Made by a program: the position numbers and the translations under genes. Below are positions 3,437 to 50,088 of a stretch of 64,000 nt of DNA, in pieces. The DNA is from an uncultured Gammaproteobacteria bacterium (lineage in GTDB: Bacteria > Patescibacteriota > Patescibacteriia > UBA11705 > DATKZF01). The notes below the pieces were generated by a model, which worked only from the letters and a program-made list of their open reading frames with translations, searched no databases and had not been told where the DNA came from. Each line of letters begins with the position of its first letter. The first letter of the stretch is position 1. The stretch lies in assembly GCA_964411255.1 (NCBI GenBank), contig CAYPKD010000003.1, positions 92,439-156,438 on the forward strand, read 5' to 3'.

Positions 3437-3559
3437 ACTGTTTATAGTCTTTGGACAAGTCTGTGTAGAAGATGTTCTTTAGTAAAACGATAAAAGTGGA
3501 AAACTTTTATGGCTAAAACTTATTAACTTTTCCTAAAAAAAAGCCACAGCTTAATACTC

Positions 3560-3650
3560 AATTATCCAACCACTTATTCACAACAATGACTTTAAAAATA
3601 ATCAATATAATTAAGATTAAATTAGTTTTACCACTCTATCCACAATATTA
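3560..3650. promoter_or_regulatory. DnaA-box cluster / probable DNA-unwinding part of oriC between dnaA and dnaN
   Basis: TTATCCAAC at 3562-3570 and CTATCCACA at 3636-3644 sit in a highly AT-rich spacer. Confidence 0.4.
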
Positions 3651-3699
3651 TTAATAAACTTATTATATATTTAAATATATTTTAAATTAATAATTAAAT

Positions 3700-4830
3700 A
3701 TGAAATTCATTTGTACGCAAGAAAATCTAAATAGGGGGTTGTTTATTACTGGTCACTTGTCAAACAAGAATGTTAACTTACCAATTTTAAATAATGTCTT
3801 AATGAAAATAAAAGACGGTATTTTAACATTGGCTTCGACAAATTTAGAAATAGGAATAAGTTGTTCTGTTCGTGGAAAATCCGAAAAAGAAGGTGAATTC
3901 ACAGTTGAATCAAAATTAATAGCTGACTTTGTTAATTTATTATCAAATCAAAAAGTTGAAATAGAATTAGATAAAGATGATTATTTAAATATTAGTACTG
4001 CCAATTCAAAAACCAGAATAAAAGGTTTACCATCAACTGACTTTCCAGTAATTCCTCAAATTGAAAAAAAAGATCCGTATATTATAAATATTAAAGATCT
4101 TCAGAAAGCAATATCTCAAACAATTTTTGCAGTATCGACAAATGAATCAAGACCAGAAATAAACGGTATTTTTATGAGCTTTCACAATGAAACTGGTAAA
4201 TTGACATTGGTTGCCACGGACAGTTACAGACTAGCTGAGAAAAAAATAGAAATTGCCGGGAATAGCAAAAAACAAGAATTTATTGTACCAGTAAAAACGC
4301 TGCAAGAGCTTCTTAGAATATTAACAGTTCTAAAAGATGAACCTGAGGCAGTAGAAAATGTAAATGTTTATACTTCTGAGAATCAAGTTTTATTTTCAAT
4401 TGATAACGGAGTAGAAATAATTTCCAGAACAGCAGAAGGGCAATACCCTGATTATAGGCAGATTATTCCAGGTGAAAATAAGACAAAGTGTACTTTAGAG
4501 ACAGCTCATCTTTTAAAAACAATTAAAACAACAAGTTTGTTTTCTAAGACTGGAATTTTTGATATCAATTTGGAATTTTTACCTGAAAAGAATAGTTTGG
4601 TAGTTTCTTCAACTAATAATCAGCTTGGAGAGAGTGTTGCTGAGATAGAGGTTGATTTTCATGGCGATAAAAACCAGTCAGTTATAAATTACAGATATTT
4701 GCTTGATGGTTTGAATAATTTAGACAGTGAAAAAGTATCGCTGGAATTAATCGACGGTAATGTGCCTTTAGTTATTAAACCAGCAGAAGATACCAGTTAT
4801 TTGTATATTGTAATGCCGATTAAACAATGA
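3700..4830 (+). CDS. dnaN: DNA polymerase III beta sliding clamp
   Basis: 376 aa, directly downstream of dnaA, with the three-domain clamp length and a typical N-terminus (MKFICTQENLNRGL). Confidence 0.9.
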   Translation: MKFICTQENLNRGLFITGHLSNKNVNLPILNNVLMKIKDGILTLASTNLEIGISCSVRGKSEKEGEFTVESKLIADFVNLLSNQKVEIELDKDDYLNISTANSKTRIKGLPSTDFPVIPQIEKKDPYIINIKDLQKAISQTIFAVSTNESRPEINGIFMSFHNETGKLTLVATDSYRLAEKKIEIAGNSKKQEFIVPVKTLQELLRILTVLKDEPEAVENVNVYTSENQVLFSIDNGVEIISRTAEGQYPDYRQIIPGENKTKCTLETAHLLKTIKTTSLFSKTGIFDINLEFLPEKNSLVVSSTNNQLGESVAEIEVDFHGDKNQSVINYRYLLDGLNNLDSEKVSLELIDGNVPLVIKPAEDTSYLYIVMPIKQ

Positions 4831-4921
4831 TAATGGAGTACATATCATGGATCAAATCTTAAATTACCAATTACTAATTACAAATTACAATAAATAAAAG
4901 ACACTGGAGTGATCCAGTGTT

Positions 4922-5335
4922 TTATAATGTCGCAGGCCAGGGTCTTGGTTTCTCAAAAGAAATAACACCTCTTACCCAGCAGAATGGCTCTTTCTGTCTA
5001 TCGATTCGCTGCTGAATTTCTTCTTTAGTAAGTATGTGTAATGATTCTTGATCTGGATGTTCAACACTCATATCAAAACCAATCCCTAGTTCCGGATTAA
5101 CCAAAAAACGATTTATCTCAACCACCTTATAATCCCTGTGAGGAAGTGTGTTTCTGACTTTTAATAAAAGATCTTTATCAAGGCAAACAGCAATTTCATC
5201 AGTTCCAGATATAAGAGCAGGATGAGTTCCCATACAACTATGATCAATTTTTAGAAAAAAGCCTGTGACTAGGCTGAATCCAGCTAAATCTTTATCTGTG
5301 AAATCCTTAAGTTTTTTTCTGTCCAGTTTTCCCAT
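4922..5335 (-). CDS. Hypothetical protein
   Basis: 137-aa ORF with no recognisable motif, located between dnaN and the tRNA cluster. Confidence 0.45.
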   Translation of the reverse strand: MGKLDRKKLKDFTDKDLAGFSLVTGFFLKIDHSCMGTHPALISGTDEIAVCLDKDLLLKVRNTLPHRDYKVVEINRFLVNPELGIGFDMSVEHPDQESLHILTKEEIQQRIDRQKEPFCWVRGVISFEKPRPWPATL

Positions 5336-5480: not shown

Positions 5481-5509
5481 TATGGCCTGCCAGCCGAAGC
5501 TCCGAAGGC
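5481..5509 (-). repeat. Conserved GC-rich tRNA 3'-trailer hairpin element (copy 1)
   Basis: ggcctgccagccgaagctccgaagg lies immediately 3' of the tRNA-Leu CCA end. Near-identical copies occur at 5776-5810, 14879-14929 and 50035-50088 (plus strand). Confidence 0.6.
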
Positions 5510-5596
5510 TGGTGCCGGCGGACGGAGTCGAACCGTCACGGATTTTCATCCACAGGATTTTAAGTCCTGCGTGTCTACCAATTCCACCACGCCGGC
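5510..5596 (-). tRNA. tRNA-Leu(UAA), type II with long variable arm, CCA encoded
   Basis: Hand fold: acceptor GCCGGCG/CGCCGGC, anticodon stem CAGGA/TCCTG with loop CTTAAAA, T-arm GACGG-TTCGACT-CCGTC, discriminator A, CCA. Confidence 0.85.
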
Positions 5597-5609: not shown

Positions 5610-5725
5610 TTACTCAAGCTTCGGCCGACAGGCCGGCCAAAGCGTAAACTTTACTCAAGCTTCGGCCGACAGGCCGGCCAAAGCGTAAACTTTACTCAAG
5701 CTTCGGCCGACAGGCCGGCTAAAGC
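5610..5725. repeat. Tandem 41-bp repeat, about 2.8 copies, between tRNA-Leu and tRNA-Gly
   Basis: The unit ttactcaagcttcggccgacaggccggccaaagcgtaaact is repeated head-to-tail and contains a cggcc-gaca-ggccg hairpin. A related motif lies in the tRNA-Gly 5' leader (5886-5945). Confidence 0.8.
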
Positions 5726-5775
5726 TGATTTTCTAAACTCCAACCCTCGATTCTCCGACGTACTGACAGGTGATT

Positions 5776-5810
5776 TGGCCTGCCAGCCGAAGCTCCGAAG
5801 GAGCGAAGGC
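5776..5810 (-). repeat. Conserved GC-rich tRNA 3'-trailer hairpin element (copy 2)
   Basis: tggcctgccagccgaagctccgaaggagcgaagg lies directly 3' of tRNA-Gly. Confidence 0.6.
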
Positions 5811-5885
5811 TGGAGCGGGTAACGGGAATCGAACCCGTATCTCTGCCATGGCAAGGCAATATAATAGCCATTATACTATACCCGC
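5811..5885 (-). tRNA. tRNA-Gly(GCC)
   Basis: Hand fold: acceptor GCGGGTA/TACCCGC, anticodon loop TTGCCAT, T-arm ACGGG-TTCGATT-CCCGT, discriminator T, CCA. Confidence 0.85.
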
Positions 5886-6088
5886 CTACGCTTTTCTTTG
5901 AAAAGCTTCGGCGGGCAGGCCCGCAACCGAAAAGCTTTTCAATATGAAAAGAGTAAGAATTATGTATTATTTATTTTATACTGATCTACCAATCTAATAA
6001 TAACATCAAATATTATAGCAAATCCACATAAAATGTCAATGATTAGTTGATTTATTAAATAAAAAACAGCCCTTTTTAAGTGCTGTTG

Positions 6089-13284: not shown

Positions 13285-13533
13285 TTAATGACTAGATTTA
13301 ACCAGATTTTCTTTTTCAATTTTCGTTAAACGTTTTATTTGCGCTTCTCTTTTCTGTGCTTCTGATCGGCTGTTAAATTTTTCAAAATAAACAATTTTTA
13401 CAGGTCTTCTATATTTTGTATATTTAGCTCCTTCGCCTTTATTATGCTTTTCTTCTCTAGCTTTAATATTTATACAAGATCCTGTGTATAACGAATTGTC
13501 ATTACATCGGGCAATGTATGTGAAGTATTTCAT
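13285..13533 (-). CDS. GIY-YIG nuclease superfamily protein (UPF0213/YhbQ-like)
   Basis: 82 aa. YIARCNDNSLYTGSCINIKAREEKHNKGEGAKYTKYRRPVKIVYFEKFNSRSEAQKRE matches the small GIY-YIG domain pattern. Confidence 0.75.
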   Translation of the reverse strand: MKYFTYIARCNDNSLYTGSCINIKAREEKHNKGEGAKYTKYRRPVKIVYFEKFNSRSEAQKREAQIKRLTKIEKENLVKSSH

Positions 13534-13614
13534 TTTAATATATAAAAGATTTAATTAATTTGTATCACTATTTATGGCTGTGCTATTCGAAGTTCGCCAA
13601 AGGCGAACGAAGAA

Positions 13615-13690
13615 TGGTGGACCTGACTGGACTTGAACCAGCGACCTCCTCCATGCCATGGAGGCGCTCTACCAACTAAGCTACAGGCCC
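13615..13690 (-). tRNA. tRNA-Ala(GGC) with G3:U70 identity pair
   Basis: Hand fold: GGGCCTG acceptor with G3-T70, anticodon loop ATGGCAT, T-arm GTCGC-TGGTTCAAGTCC region, discriminator A, CCA. Confidence 0.8.
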
Positions 13691-13757: not shown

Positions 13758-14684
13758 TTATTTATATATATCATTTTCAATATTTTTGCGTGTTTTTTTC
13801 AAACTTTTTATAGCTTTCTTTGACAATATATTATCTGGCATTTCGATTTGCGCACTACAGCTCAAAAGAAATAGATTTTTCATTTCCTCATATTGTTCCT
13901 CACCTTCTGGCAGCTTATTTTTATATTGAAATGCCTTGGCTAAAGTTTGATATGAGCCAACGATATCCTCATCAGCGATTCTTCTTTCAAAAATATCAGG
14001 AATTGATTGGATTTCAGAGGTTTTCATTATTGTAGAAAATCTTTCCTGGTCTTTTTTAGAAATTTCCTTGGATTTCATAATAAGTTCAGGACCAGTAACA
14101 AAATCAAAAGAATCTGATTCTACGTTTGATTTTAATACTTGCAATTCTACCCGGTATTCTAAAGCTATATTCTCTTTTTTCATTAATGTATCAATATAAC
14201 CGATAAATTTAGTTTTCATTGCCTCGTATTCTGGAAGATTTTCAGTATGAGCTCTTTCTAAATGCCCGCTGGCAGCGGCAATCATACCGTGTTTTATTGA
14301 ATTTTCAAATAAATCGTGAGTAACTTCAGTAAGCACTTTTTTAAAATAATCTTCAGTAGTTATTTCTGTTTTTATTGGTTCTTTTTCAGCTGTAGTTTTT
14401 TTCTTTTCTGCAATTTTTTCAGGACGGGCAGCAACAGTTTTTTCTACACCGGTTATTTTTCCAGAAGCTTGGGTTTGGGCTGTACCTAATTTTTCAGTTT
14501 CCATTTCATCATACGCTTCTTTTGCAGCCTCAACCTGTGCAGGAGTGACCTGAGTTTCAAGGCCAGATACTTTCCAGCCTTTTTCTTTTTTGGGTTTTGC
14601 CTGTCTCTTTTTGAGTTTTTCTGGAGAGTCAGGAACGGATATTTGCGTTTTTTCAGGTTTTTGTTGCTCCGGTCTAAATACCAT
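13758..14684 (-). CDS. Hypothetical Lys/Glu-rich protein; the track ORF 13758..14933 is trimmed to the first ATG not overlapping tRNA-Lys
   Basis: The longest ORF runs through tRNA-Lys. The internal ATG at 14684 (MVFRPEQQKPEK...) gives a 308-aa product clear of the tRNA. No motif recognised. Confidence 0.45.
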   Translation of the reverse strand: MVFRPEQQKPEKTQISVPDSPEKLKKRQAKPKKEKGWKVSGLETQVTPAQVEAAKEAYDEMETEKLGTAQTQASGKITGVEKTVAARPEKIAEKKKTTAEKEPIKTEITTEDYFKKVLTEVTHDLFENSIKHGMIAAASGHLERAHTENLPEYEAMKTKFIGYIDTLMKKENIALEYRVELQVLKSNVESDSFDFVTGPELIMKSKEISKKDQERFSTIMKTSEIQSIPDIFERRIADEDIVGSYQTLAKAFQYKNKLPEGEEQYEEMKNLFLLSCSAQIEMPDNILSKKAIKSLKKTRKNIENDIYK

Positions 14685-14761
14685 ATTTTTTAAAATTAAA
14701 TGTAATAAAGGTCTGCCATCCGAAGCCCGACCTTGAATTTGTCGAGAGGGAGAGCGAAGGA

Positions 14762-14836
14762 TGGTGGGTCGTGAAGGACTCGAACCTTCAACCAATGGCT
14801 TAAGAGGCCACTGCTCTACCATTGAGCTAACGACCC
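14762..14836 (-). tRNA. tRNA-Lys(CUU)
   Basis: Hand fold: GGGTCGT acceptor, anticodon stem GTGGC/GCCAT with loop CTCTTAA, T-arm GAAGG-TTCGAGT-CCTTC, discriminator A, CCA. Confidence 0.85.
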
Positions 14837-14878
14837 TTGGTATGAAATAATAAATAACAAAATCCAAAAGAATATTTA

Positions 14879-14929
14879 TGGCCTGCCATTTGAAGCTCCG
14901 AATATTGTGAGGAGCGAAGAATGGCGCAG
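14879..14929 (-). repeat. Conserved tRNA 3'-trailer element (copy 3)
   Basis: tggcctgccatttgaagctccgaatattgtgaggagcgaagaatggcgcag shares gagcgaag and ccgaagctccgaa modules with the other copies. Confidence 0.55.
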
Positions 14930-14958
14930 TCATGAACCATTCACTTTATTTGGATTCA

Positions 14959-15035
14959 TGGCGCAGCCGGAGGGACTCGAACCCCCAACCCTCTGGTCCG
15001 AAGCCAGATGCTCTATCCAATTGAGCTACGGCTGC
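14959..15035 (-). tRNA. tRNA-Arg(UCG)
   Basis: Hand fold: GCAGCCG acceptor, anticodon stem TCTGG/CCAGA with loop CTTCGGA, T-arm GGGGG-TTCGAGT-CCCTC, discriminator G, CCA. Confidence 0.85.
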
Positions 15036-15068
15036 ATGTTGCATATTAAACGAATTGTAAATTTTTTT

Positions 15069-15230
15069 CCCAACCCTCTGGTTCGAAGCCAGATGTCCCG
15101 ATTTTTAGAGCCGCTAATCAGCTTAATAATCGAGGATTCTCGAAATTGTAACAAAATCATAAATTTTGACAATTTCGGGACTCTATCCAATTGAGCCCTA
15201 CCCTGAGCGAAGTCGAAGGGTGCGGCTGCA
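15069..15230 (-). pseudogene. Fragmented tRNA-Arg(UCG)-like copy with two hairpin insertions and truncated T-arm/acceptor
   Basis: The reverse strand reads GCAGCCG, then a 26-nt insert, then GCTCAATTGGATAGAG, then an insert of roughly 85 nt bounded by TCCCGA...TCGGGA, then CATCTGGCTTCGAACCAGAGGGTTGGG, then an A tract. It matches the 5' two-thirds of the adjacent intact tRNA-Arg but lacks its 3' part. Confidence 0.5.
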
Positions 15231-15340
15231 TAAGAAAGTTATTGGTGTCACTTTAGGATAATCTTGTATAGATAATTGTTGCAAAAAAATCCTGTAAATA
15301 AAACTTAAGCAAAGCTGCCTAAGTTTTATTTATTTTTATA

Positions 15341-16033
15341 TTAGCTCCACTTTTTCTTTTTTATAGCCTTCTCAGCGGCTATTTCCTGAGCTTCCTGCTT
15401 ACTTAATCCTGATCCTTTAGTTACCAATTCTTTTCCCAAATAAACACCTACTTCAAATATTTTAGCATGGTCTGGACCGCTTTCTTTTGATACTTTGTAT
15501 GTTGGTGTAATACCCACTTTTTCCTGGGCAGCTTCCTGGAATTTACTTTTTGGATCCAGATATAGTTGATGTTTCAGAATATATGGCAATTCTGGCAAAA
15601 GTTTTTTTTCTAAAAATTCTTTTGAGGCCTGCCATCCCTGATCCAAATATATTGAGCCAATTAATGATTCAAAGGCATTAGCCAAAATGTACTGGCGCGC
15701 TTTTCCAATATCCTTTGATTCACCTTTGCTTAAATATAAATAAGTTTCAAGGCCAATTCGCTGCGCCAGTTTAGCTAACATTTTACTATTGACTAAACTT
15801 GCCCGCCAATTAGTTAATTCGCCTTCTGGGTTTTCATAATTAAGATAAAGATGTTCAGTCACAACTAATTCAAGGACTGCATCTCCCAAAAATTCCAGCC
15901 TTTCATTATGTCCCAGATGGAAATCAGGATGTTCATTTAAGTAAGAACGATGGACTAGTGCTTGTTCCAGTAAGTCCATGTTTTCAAATTTAACCCCTAT
16001 TTTCTTTTCTAATTTTGAAAAATCTTTTTTCAT
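15341..16033 (-). CDS. rnc: Ribonuclease III
   Basis: 230 aa with the ERLEFLGDAVLELVVTEHLY RNase III signature and a C-terminal dsRBD. Confidence 0.9.
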   Translation of the reverse strand: MKKDFSKLEKKIGVKFENMDLLEQALVHRSYLNEHPDFHLGHNERLEFLGDAVLELVVTEHLYLNYENPEGELTNWRASLVNSKMLAKLAQRIGLETYLYLSKGESKDIGKARQYILANAFESLIGSIYLDQGWQASKEFLEKKLLPELPYILKHQLYLDPKSKFQEAAQEKVGITPTYKVSKESGPDHAKIFEVGVYLGKELVTKGSGLSKQEAQEIAAEKAIKKKKWS

Positions 16034-50034: not shown

Positions 50035-50088
50035 TCCTTCGCTCTCGCCTCGCGAAGCTCGACTTGAGCTTCGGATGGCGCAGTCACT
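50035..50088 (+). repeat. Conserved tRNA 3'-trailer element (copy 4, plus strand)
   Basis: tccttcgctctcgcctcgcgaagctcgacttgagcttcggatggcgcag shares TTCGCTC and GAGCTTCGGATGGC modules with the minus-strand copies. Confidence 0.55.

Follow-up and report, generated by a model that had tools for sequence, protein, structure and literature searches.

A disrupted partial copy of tRNA-Arg(UCG) with two hairpin insertions beside the intact gene in a Patescibacteria genome

A partial and interrupted copy of a tRNA-Arg(UCG) gene, hereafter referred to as the remnant, was analysed in a 64,000-nucleotide (nt) stretch of contig CAYPKD010000003.1 (assembly GCA_964411255.1, positions 92,439 to 156,438 of the forward strand), the whole of which is referred to as the window. 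The host is a member of the Patescibacteria (Candidate Phyla Radiation, CPR) near Uhrbacteria and Kuenenbacteria. Three blocks of the remnant, corresponding to tRNA-Arg(UCG) positions 1-7, 8-24 and 25-51, respectively, occupy 15229-15069 on the minus strand. These blocks are parted by an insert of 22-26 nt (insert 1) and an insert of 85 nt (insert 2), and the remnant ends in an A tract. It lies 33 nt from the intact tRNA-Arg(UCG), on the upstream side, and its neighbours are rnc (15341-16033, minus strand) and nusB. The features are listed below as read along the minus strand.

15295-15332, minus strand: rnc terminator hairpin, the upstream boundary of the region, kept in all relatives read
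15223-15229, minus strand: copy of the acceptor 5' strand, GCAGCCG, tRNA positions 1-7 (sequence reading)
15197-15222, minus strand: insert 1 followed by TA and GG; CCCT/AGGG hairpin of a GC-rich repeat family
15181-15196, minus strand: D-stem 5' strand, D loop and three of the four bases of the D-stem 3' strand, positions 10-24, GCTCAATTGGATAGAG
15096-15180, minus strand: insert 2, 85 nt, TCCCGA...TCGGGA, between G24 and C25 (from its fold and the alignment with the related locus L001)
15069-15095, minus strand: anticodon arm (UCG), variable loop and first three T-stem bases, positions 25-51, CATCTGGCTTCGAACCAGAGGGTTGGG
15036-15068, minus strand: A tract (AAAAAAA) and 26 more bases, together the 33-nt spacer (sequence reading)
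14959-15035, minus strand: intact tRNA-Arg(UCG), CCA encoded (ARAGORN; Rfam tRNA, 69.7 bits)

Insert 1 proper is CACCCTTCGACTTCGCTCAGGG (15222-15201, minus strand), composed of CA and CCCTTCGACTTCGCTCAGGG; it is followed by TA (15200-15199), corresponding to tRNA positions 8-9, and by an extra GG (15198-15197). The sequence GCTCAATTGGATAGAG is identical to the intact gene (15011-15026) at 16 of 16 positions, including the window-specific D loop AATTGG, and CATCTGGCTTCGAACCAGAGGGTTGGG is identical to 14984-15010 at 26 of 27 positions, the sole difference being A37 for G37. When the latter 27-mer was searched with up to 3 mismatches, only two sites were found in the window, against 0.00 expected from shuffled sequences. 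These identities bear out the initial annotation of this stretch, which had described a partial tRNA-Arg(UCG) copy with two hairpin inserts and without its 3' third. The missing portion, the T-arm 3' half plus the acceptor 3' strand, has no further copy in the 64-kb window. A simple tandem duplication was rejected as the origin of the arrangement, because under that model the 33-nt spacer should match what precedes the fragment, and the two differ.

The remnant was never called by ARAGORN in the default, intron-aware or relaxed mode, the last two of which had been proposed as a check in the initial annotation, and it was not matched by the Rfam tRNA model at the gathering threshold or at E up to 10. 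The intact gene was the sole tRNA-Arg(UCG) called there by ARAGORN and Rfam. A complete cloverleaf, the mark of a functional tRNA, is not available, as the remnant stops after T-stem position 51 and runs into the A tract. Judged from its sequence, the remnant cannot yield a tRNA. A split or multi-intron tRNA, from which the inserts would be spliced out and whose 3' third would be supplied from elsewhere, would explain the correct order of the exon-like blocks and the intact anticodon loop, and in archaeal genes of this type non-canonical bulge-helix-bulge (BHB) introns use D-arm positions such as 24/25. However, no BHB was present at the insert junctions, where insert 2 is closed by pairing between its two ends (GTCCCGA/TCGGGAC) and the unpaired bases lie on the same side of a 4-bp helix, not staggered. 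Moreover, no 3' half was found in the 64 kb, no sign of splicing machinery was seen, the host is a bacterium, the intron mode of ARAGORN was negative, and the version of the remnant in L001 has neither the D-stem 5' strand nor the T-arm piece. We regard this explanation as hardly conceivable. The group I introns of Patescibacteria tRNA genes, which average about 257 nt, occupy the anticodon loop and self-splice from complete genes (PMC13011429), come from the same phylum and likewise concern interrupted tRNA genes that escape standard tools. In contrast, the inserts described here measure 22-26 and 85 nt, fall short of the 200 nt or so that a group I catalytic core takes up at the least, lie in the D arm of a truncated copy, contain no group I core and matched none of the Rfam introns, even with E values up to 10 allowed. 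A split or intron-bearing tRNA, which had already been ranked as less likely in the initial annotation, thus appears very unlikely and practically excluded. The intervening sequences of bacterial rRNA resemble the inserts as extra helix-closed structures within a conserved RNA helix, but they occur in functional rRNA and are excised by RNase III, whereas the host molecule is incomplete here.

Relatives were taken from 80 rnc loci of species genomes together with the contigs of rnc proteins at least 77% identical to that of the window or of L001 (loci are denoted by L and a number); a second rnc search seeded with the L001 protein gave no further close relatives beyond P0001-P0011. Orthologous remnants between the rnc terminator and tRNA-Arg were found in 6 of 9 lineages of one Patescibacteria clade. 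The L001 locus (JBMORT010000002, rnc 77% identical) consists of CAGCCGCAGC, a 32-nt GC hairpin, GTAGGATAGAG, an 85-nt insert, CATCTGGCTTCGGACCAG, a 60-nt spacer and tRNA-Arg. The window and L001 share GGATAGAG, the hairpin scaffold and CATCTGGCTTCGRACCAG; neither the T-arm piece nor the spacer has been retained. L216 (rnc 85% identical) carries GCAGCCGTAGC (positions 1-11), a hairpin of the L001 type, AATTGGATA (positions 14-21) and a short GTCCC..GGGAC hairpin; no other GTCCC..GGGAC hairpin was found in the window. The first hairpins of L001 and L216 are identical at 33 of 34 positions, as compared with 21 of 64 four-fold degenerate sites, and the sole change between them leads to a G.U pair on the tRNA strand. 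Positions 1-11 with GC hairpins of about 70 nt are present in L128 and L129 (together with positions 15-33 in L128), positions 1-12 with a trailer-type hairpin in L130 and L131, and a decayed version of the L216-type remnant, adjoining a different tRNA-Arg, in L221. The start of the remnant reads GCAGCCGTAGC, GCAGTCGTAGC or CAGCCGCAGC in L216, L128, L130, L001 and L221. No fragment was found in L126, L218 and L219. An intact second tRNA-Arg upstream, which the initial annotation had named as the mark of simple decay, was found in none of the relatives; other stages of the remnant, or nothing, stand there instead.

A strain variant was suspected in L082 (4067-4372) and rejected, since the contig is chimeric: it is identical to the window and then continues, from the T arm of tRNA-Arg, with the N-terminus of a high-GC seryl-tRNA synthetase gene (serS). 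The chimera is seeded by the conserved T arm. In practical terms, such tRNA fragments can seed chimeric assemblies, as in L082, and false tRNA calls.

Insert 2 is predicted to fold into two tandem hairpins of about 42 nt, each closed by TCC(C/T)CGA...TCG(A/G)GGA, with some 20 bp in hairpin A and some 17 bp in hairpin B, in the window and L001 alike. A four-way junction closed by GTCCCGA/TCGGGAC is possible as an alternative fold, since the closing motifs TCC(C/T)CGA and TCG(A/G)GGA recur. Insert 2 is 91% identical to L001 4865-4951. Three double compensatory changes (G-C to U-A, U-A to C-G and A-U to G-C) separate hairpin A of the window from that of L001, all of its pairs being Watson-Crick in both; hairpin B is perfect in L001 and has two mismatches in the window. 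The 3' strand of hairpin B together with the anticodon arm forms a 38-nt block with one difference between the two loci, and the D-loop piece GGATAGAG, insert 2 and the anticodon arm together are identical at 97 of 112 positions. The flanks are identical at 31 of 60 positions (18 gaps) in the upstream stretch and at 13 of 41 in the spacer to the tRNA. The rnc genes of the two loci agree at 77% of the encoded residues, 43% of third positions and 10 of 57 four-fold sites, so the silent sites are saturated between them. Conservation above the neutral level was therefore found together with compensatory changes, the combination looked for in a conserved structured RNA, and it was found from two sequences. 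The comparison shows that insert 2 is conserved with L001 far above the neutral level as gauged by these silent sites, and by the same measure the remnant is not evolving neutrally. The suggestion in the initial annotation of a decaying duplicate holds insofar as the copy is partial and non-functional, but it is too simple in view of the orthologue in L001 (23% of rnc residues different), the 97 of 112 identical positions of the core and the compensatory changes.

The fold of the leader was better than that of shuffled sequence (z = -3.1). The covariance model R1 of insert 2 recovered only the original in the window with filters off, and only the L001 orthologue in 89 related loci (633 kb); the many copies expected of an element like a repetitive extragenic palindrome (REP) or a miniature inverted-repeat transposable element (MITE) were thus not seen for insert 2 in the window and these loci. 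Insert 2 had no match in Rfam. The 18-mer across the junction of insert 2 and the anticodon arm, TCGGGACATYTGGCTTCG, gave 42 matches in 241 million metagenome records, all of them to unrelated GC-rich sequence. The P3 hairpin of insert 2 gave three matches in viral contigs, and the one inspected was an unrelated chance match.

Insert 1 shows a different distribution from that of the single-copy insert 2. Its 20-mer CCCTTCGACTWCGCTCAGGG (15201-15220) gave 86 exact matches on 79 IMG/VR contigs with GC contents of 34-73%, up to 3 per contig, usually intergenic and often with an inverted partner. Plasmids of Sphingomonas and Sphingobium also carry it in multiple copies, with 226 places counted in 26 plasmid records, and L132 has a tRNA-Lys fragment whose D loop contains a 25-mer version. 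No CCCTTCGACTWCGCTCAGGG match was found in the INPHARED phages, no family for the 20-mer in Rfam and nothing relevant in a literature search via peptide-like translations of the repeat; 0 of the 86 IMG/VR matches lay within 300 nt of a tRNA. A link to GIY-YIG genes, prompted by the Sphingomonas match, was tried and rejected, as a small GIY-YIG gene occurred in just 1 of the 79 loci; with regard to a cognate transposase of the RAYT or another type, a small GIY-YIG ORF (13285-13533) was all that was noted in the window. Insert 1 has the short palindrome, the many copies and the inverted pairs of REP, REPIN (paired REP) and MITE-like elements, and on these features it can be classed as a copy of a short GC-rich palindromic repeat. 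The 20-mer seems to behave as a REP/REPIN-type unit. Like the members of such families, insert 1 is a short palindrome, as are the hairpins of the tRNA trailers, and both are GC-rich within an AT-rich genome. Unlike them, families of this kind being normally species- or genus-specific, the 20-mer is exact in hosts with GC contents of 34-73%, and its identity extends across many phyla of very different base composition. The initial annotation had stated that the motif of insert 1 is shared with the tRNA trailers; this stands for the 8-mer CTTCGCTC (9 matches, 0.66 being expected; in four cases the match adjoins the 3' end of a tRNA) and fails for the 13-mer TTCGACTTCGCTC, which is unique in the window.

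The tRNA-like blocks follow the adjacent gene. Fragments share lineage-specific bases with it, namely T5 in L130, AACTGG and CACTTGG in L128 and AATTGG in the window, which argues for conversion from the working gene or for repeated re-creation. The L001 fragment retains G7 and the L001 gene has T7. Where another tRNA-Arg has replaced the GCAGCC-type gene (L221, L132/L217), the remnant is degenerate, which would fit the loss of a conversion donor or of a cis function.

A simple scan of the region gave one promoter-like site, which lies in hairpin A of insert 2:

15145-15172, minus strand: promoter-like TTGTCA, 16 nt, TG-n-TACAAT, with a predicted start near 15138

It is the only strong extended -10 site upstream of the tRNA-Arg and tRNA-Lys genes of the window. 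Sites with at least 10 of 12 matches and the extended -10 TG numbered 16 on both strands of the window, and such a site lies upstream of 4 of 5 other candidate tRNA units (Leu-6772, Gly/Leu, Arg-UCU and Arg-CCU), tRNA-Ala having none within 300 nt. The chance of a site within 300 nt on the correct strand is about 0.04.

We give about an even chance to the explanation that the remnant is an ancient disrupted tRNA-Arg(UCG) duplicate, whose blocks have been homogenised by the working gene and whose hairpins have been retained as a putative promoter and/or structured leader. According to this explanation, a REP/MITE-like hairpin would have disrupted, already in the clade's ancestor, the D arm of a tRNA-Arg copy that either stood next to a second one or was itself a partial tandem duplicate. 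The tRNA-like blocks would since have been maintained by gene conversion, like the working gene, and the hairpins would persist because the relic serves the working gene in cis, by providing its promoter and/or a structured 5' leader. Transcription of the tRNA-Arg and tRNA-Lys pair of the window would most likely start from the extended -10 promoter in insert 2, and the leader would then be cleaved off by RNase P. Several observations weigh against this account. Insert 2 is present in two sequences only, and the covariation therefore comes from one hairpin. By rnc identity, the window and L001 sit in different parts of the clade, so that vertical descent needs several losses of insert 2 (L216, L218, L221, L126, L128), and this patchy occurrence fits a dispensable or horizontally moving element equally well. 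L001 does not share the promoter-like hexamers, and a promoter search by the same rule found none convincing in the relatives. A start at the predicted site would also place hairpin A outside the RNA, so that its compensatory changes would need a reason at the DNA level. The remnant as such can be classed among tRNA gene fragments or pseudogenes; what would not be expected there is the conserved structured insertion.

The favoured account has to be weighed against three others. The remnant may be a neutral relic, that is, a partial duplicate in decay into which repeats have inserted as hitch-hikers, which plays no role itself and whose similarity to the working gene comes from gene conversion only. 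Everything required for a tRNA is missing, all stages of decay down to nothing are seen among the relatives, the tRNA-like blocks follow the neighbouring gene and hairpin B has two unpaired positions in the window, as would be expected of such a relic; but insert 2, a single-copy element in the window and the 89 related loci, lacks a donor for conversion, and neutrality is at odds with 91% identity to L001 beside 10 of 57 four-fold sites and unalignable flanks, with the three double compensatory changes and with the 33 of 34 identical positions of the L001 and L216 hairpins. We consider this unlikely. A scar of mobile DNA is held to be improbable to the same degree; here the remnant would be the displaced 5' part of the resident gene, the gene itself having been restored by the insertion of an integrative element or of a tRNA cassette flanked by inverted repeats, or else insert 2 would be a homing insertion at G24/C25. 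Fragments of tRNA genes occur at integration sites of mobile elements as attL/attR remnants (Williams 2002, as cited in PMC9897764), and such fragments are a common outcome of integration (PMC9897764). As at those sites, a partial copy stands here beside a complete gene of the same isoacceptor, tRNA genes being hot spots of rearrangement. A second GACTGCGCCA lies 27 nt past the tRNA of the window, insert 2 is patchy yet highly identical, and cassette-like arrangements are known from relatives: the intact tRNA-Arg of L040 has a 24-bp inverted repeat and is nested between fragments 1-21 and 19-77, and a different tRNA-Arg with 14-bp inverted repeats lies beside the decayed gene in L221 and L132/L217. 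In L130, a large serine recombinase gene adjoins the tRNA cluster. On the other hand, the partial and complete copies at integration sites bracket a kb-sized element with an integrase, and the leftover is normally the 3' part, left at a distance, whereas the present fragment is a 5' part and only 33 nt separate it from the complete gene downstream. The two copies are not at opposite ends of an integrase-bearing element, and no integrase was found among the neighbouring genes (rnc, nusB, CYTH, DNA_alkylation, GIY-YIG and unknowns), nor any recombinase in the neighbourhood. The integration scar proposed in the initial annotation is not upheld in its classical form, as the 33 nt between the copies hold neither an element nor an integrase. 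Further points against mobile DNA are that the intact gene of the window has no flanking inverted repeat, that L001 has no 3' remnant and that insert 2 has no other copy, its junction 18-mer being without a related match in the metagenome records.

The remaining account, in which the element would be a stand-alone tRNA-derived small RNA mimicking tRNA-Arg for a protein that reads it, and acting as a regulator or decoy, is regarded as still less probable. Its partner might be arginyl-tRNA synthetase (ArgRS), a modification enzyme or an anticodon nuclease, to which the D-loop piece (A20) and the anticodon arm (C35, G36) would be displayed on the hairpin scaffold; A20 and C35 are known arginine identity elements. 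That the window and L001 both keep GGATAGAG, the hairpin scaffold and CATCTGGCTTCGRACCAG and not the T-arm piece or the spacer, and that the leader folds better than its shuffles, would agree with such a role. However, position 37 differs between the two loci, gene conversion can explain the anticodon arm and the D loop, most relatives are without the element, no terminator follows it and no partner protein was identified. A broader idea is put forward tentatively, as one that would not be expected to hold but deserves mention: the relic would be a working tRNA-derived RNA showing the arginine identity elements (A20, C35-G36) on a conserved hairpin scaffold and regulating or protecting tRNA-Arg via ArgRS sensing, control of processing or an anticodon-nuclease decoy, and it might also be one visible product of an undescribed turnover of tRNA genes in Patescibacteria. 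By such turnover, tRNA cassettes flanked by inverted repeats, and short hairpins, may enter resident tRNA genes, as in L040, L221 and L132.

None of the known parallels fits fully. In the tRNA operons of Escherichia coli, the 178-bp repeats of tyrT and the rtT RNA are partial tRNA copies within the transcription unit which can be released as a small RNA; unlike the remnant, they are copies of the 3' end located downstream of the gene and without hairpin insertions, and there is no homology. Fragments of tRNA genes are usually taken for integration scars or noise, whereas this fragment persists beside a working gene across lineages saturated at silent sites, with a conserved hairpin module and probably the operon promoter. 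If this is confirmed, very small genomes would be shown to reuse broken tRNA copies as cis elements, and the tRNA genes of Patescibacteria to be unusually active sites of insertion and replacement.

Partial copies near tRNA genes were also seen in other places of the related loci. Among 113 tRNAs, 17 partial copies lay upstream and 11 downstream on the same strand, these same-strand counts including some T-loop matches between neighbouring tRNAs, as compared with 5 and 0, respectively, on the opposite strand. Intact genes accompanied by a partial copy of tRNA-Arg or tRNA-Lys that carries GC-rich inserts recur beyond the clade, in L015, L022, L040, L057 and L060. Partial tRNA-Arg or tRNA-Lys copies with GC-rich hairpins of 22-80 nt were read at L015 5147-5420, L022 8170-8450, L128 3505-3620 and L132 2055-2170; the hairpins interrupt the D loop or the T loop or follow the anticodon, and an intact gene of the same isoacceptor adjoins each. 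At L040 5350-5800 (reverse strand), tRNA-Arg positions 1-21 are followed by 57 nt, an intact tRNA-Arg, 40 nt and positions 19-77 with a terminator; the intact tRNA-Arg has a perfect 24-bp inverted repeat on both sides, so that a complete tRNA gene lies within the D loop of another. A tRNA-Arg(UCG) of the other type, with the acceptor GCCCCCT and perfect 14-bp inverted repeats (TTCAARCATCAATG / CATTGATGYTTGAA), was found at L221 1040-1215, L132 1840-2010 and L217 1720-1885, where it adjoins a decayed remnant of the GCAGCC type, which suggests that a cassette replaced the tRNA-Arg gene in L221 and L132/L217. In L130, the large serine recombinase gene (3551-5167) abuts a cluster of tRNA-Arg, tRNA-Lys and tRNA-Ala, so mobile DNA does use this tRNA cluster.

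Downstream of the remnant and the intact gene, two further features were read.

14879-14958, minus strand: 27-nt extra hairpin, second GACTGCGCCA and CCA-anchored trailer hairpin, 3' of tRNA-Arg (sequence reading)
14762-14836, downstream of tRNA-Arg(UCG): tRNA-Lys(CUU) (ARAGORN, Rfam)

The second GACTGCGCCA (14931-14922) is identical to the 3' end of tRNA-Arg at 9 of 10 positions, and 14922-14958 resembles a small insertion duplicating the tRNA end or the 3' stump of an old gene. An open reading frame (ORF) of 391 amino acids (aa) given by public gene finders (13758-14933, minus strand) overruns tRNA-Lys and the trailer of tRNA-Arg; as it crosses tRNA-Lys, the real gene must begin downstream of the tRNA-Lys trailer. 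An ORF of 82 aa for a GIY-YIG nuclease (13285-13533, minus strand), which had no NCBIfam match, lies directly 3' of the tRNA-Ala trailer, as it does in L126. An Rfam match to the antisense RNA HPnc0260 (13524-13653, plus strand), antisense to tRNA-Ala and its trailer, scored 60.5 bits against a threshold of 59 and is probably spurious.

Hairpins of one trailer family follow six tRNA genes of the window (5485-5510, 5778-5810, 13570-13614, 14711-14761, 14879-14931 and 50035-50085). They start at the encoded CCA (CCA-NNC-TTCG-CTC...GAGC-TTCG-GNN-TGG) and end in CAGGCC, CAGACC or CACAGCC, and their recurrence points to a common signal of 3' processing or termination. The leaders of tRNA-Gly and tRNA-Leu (5610-5930, minus strand) contain GGCCTGCCCGCCGAAGC-type sequences complementary to their own trailers (GCTTCGGCTGGCAGGCC); such leader-trailer pairs would give long stems, comparable to the processing stalks of rRNA. 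The tRNA-Leu leader contains three tandem 47-nt repeats of the GGCCTGCCCGCCGAAGC-type unit.

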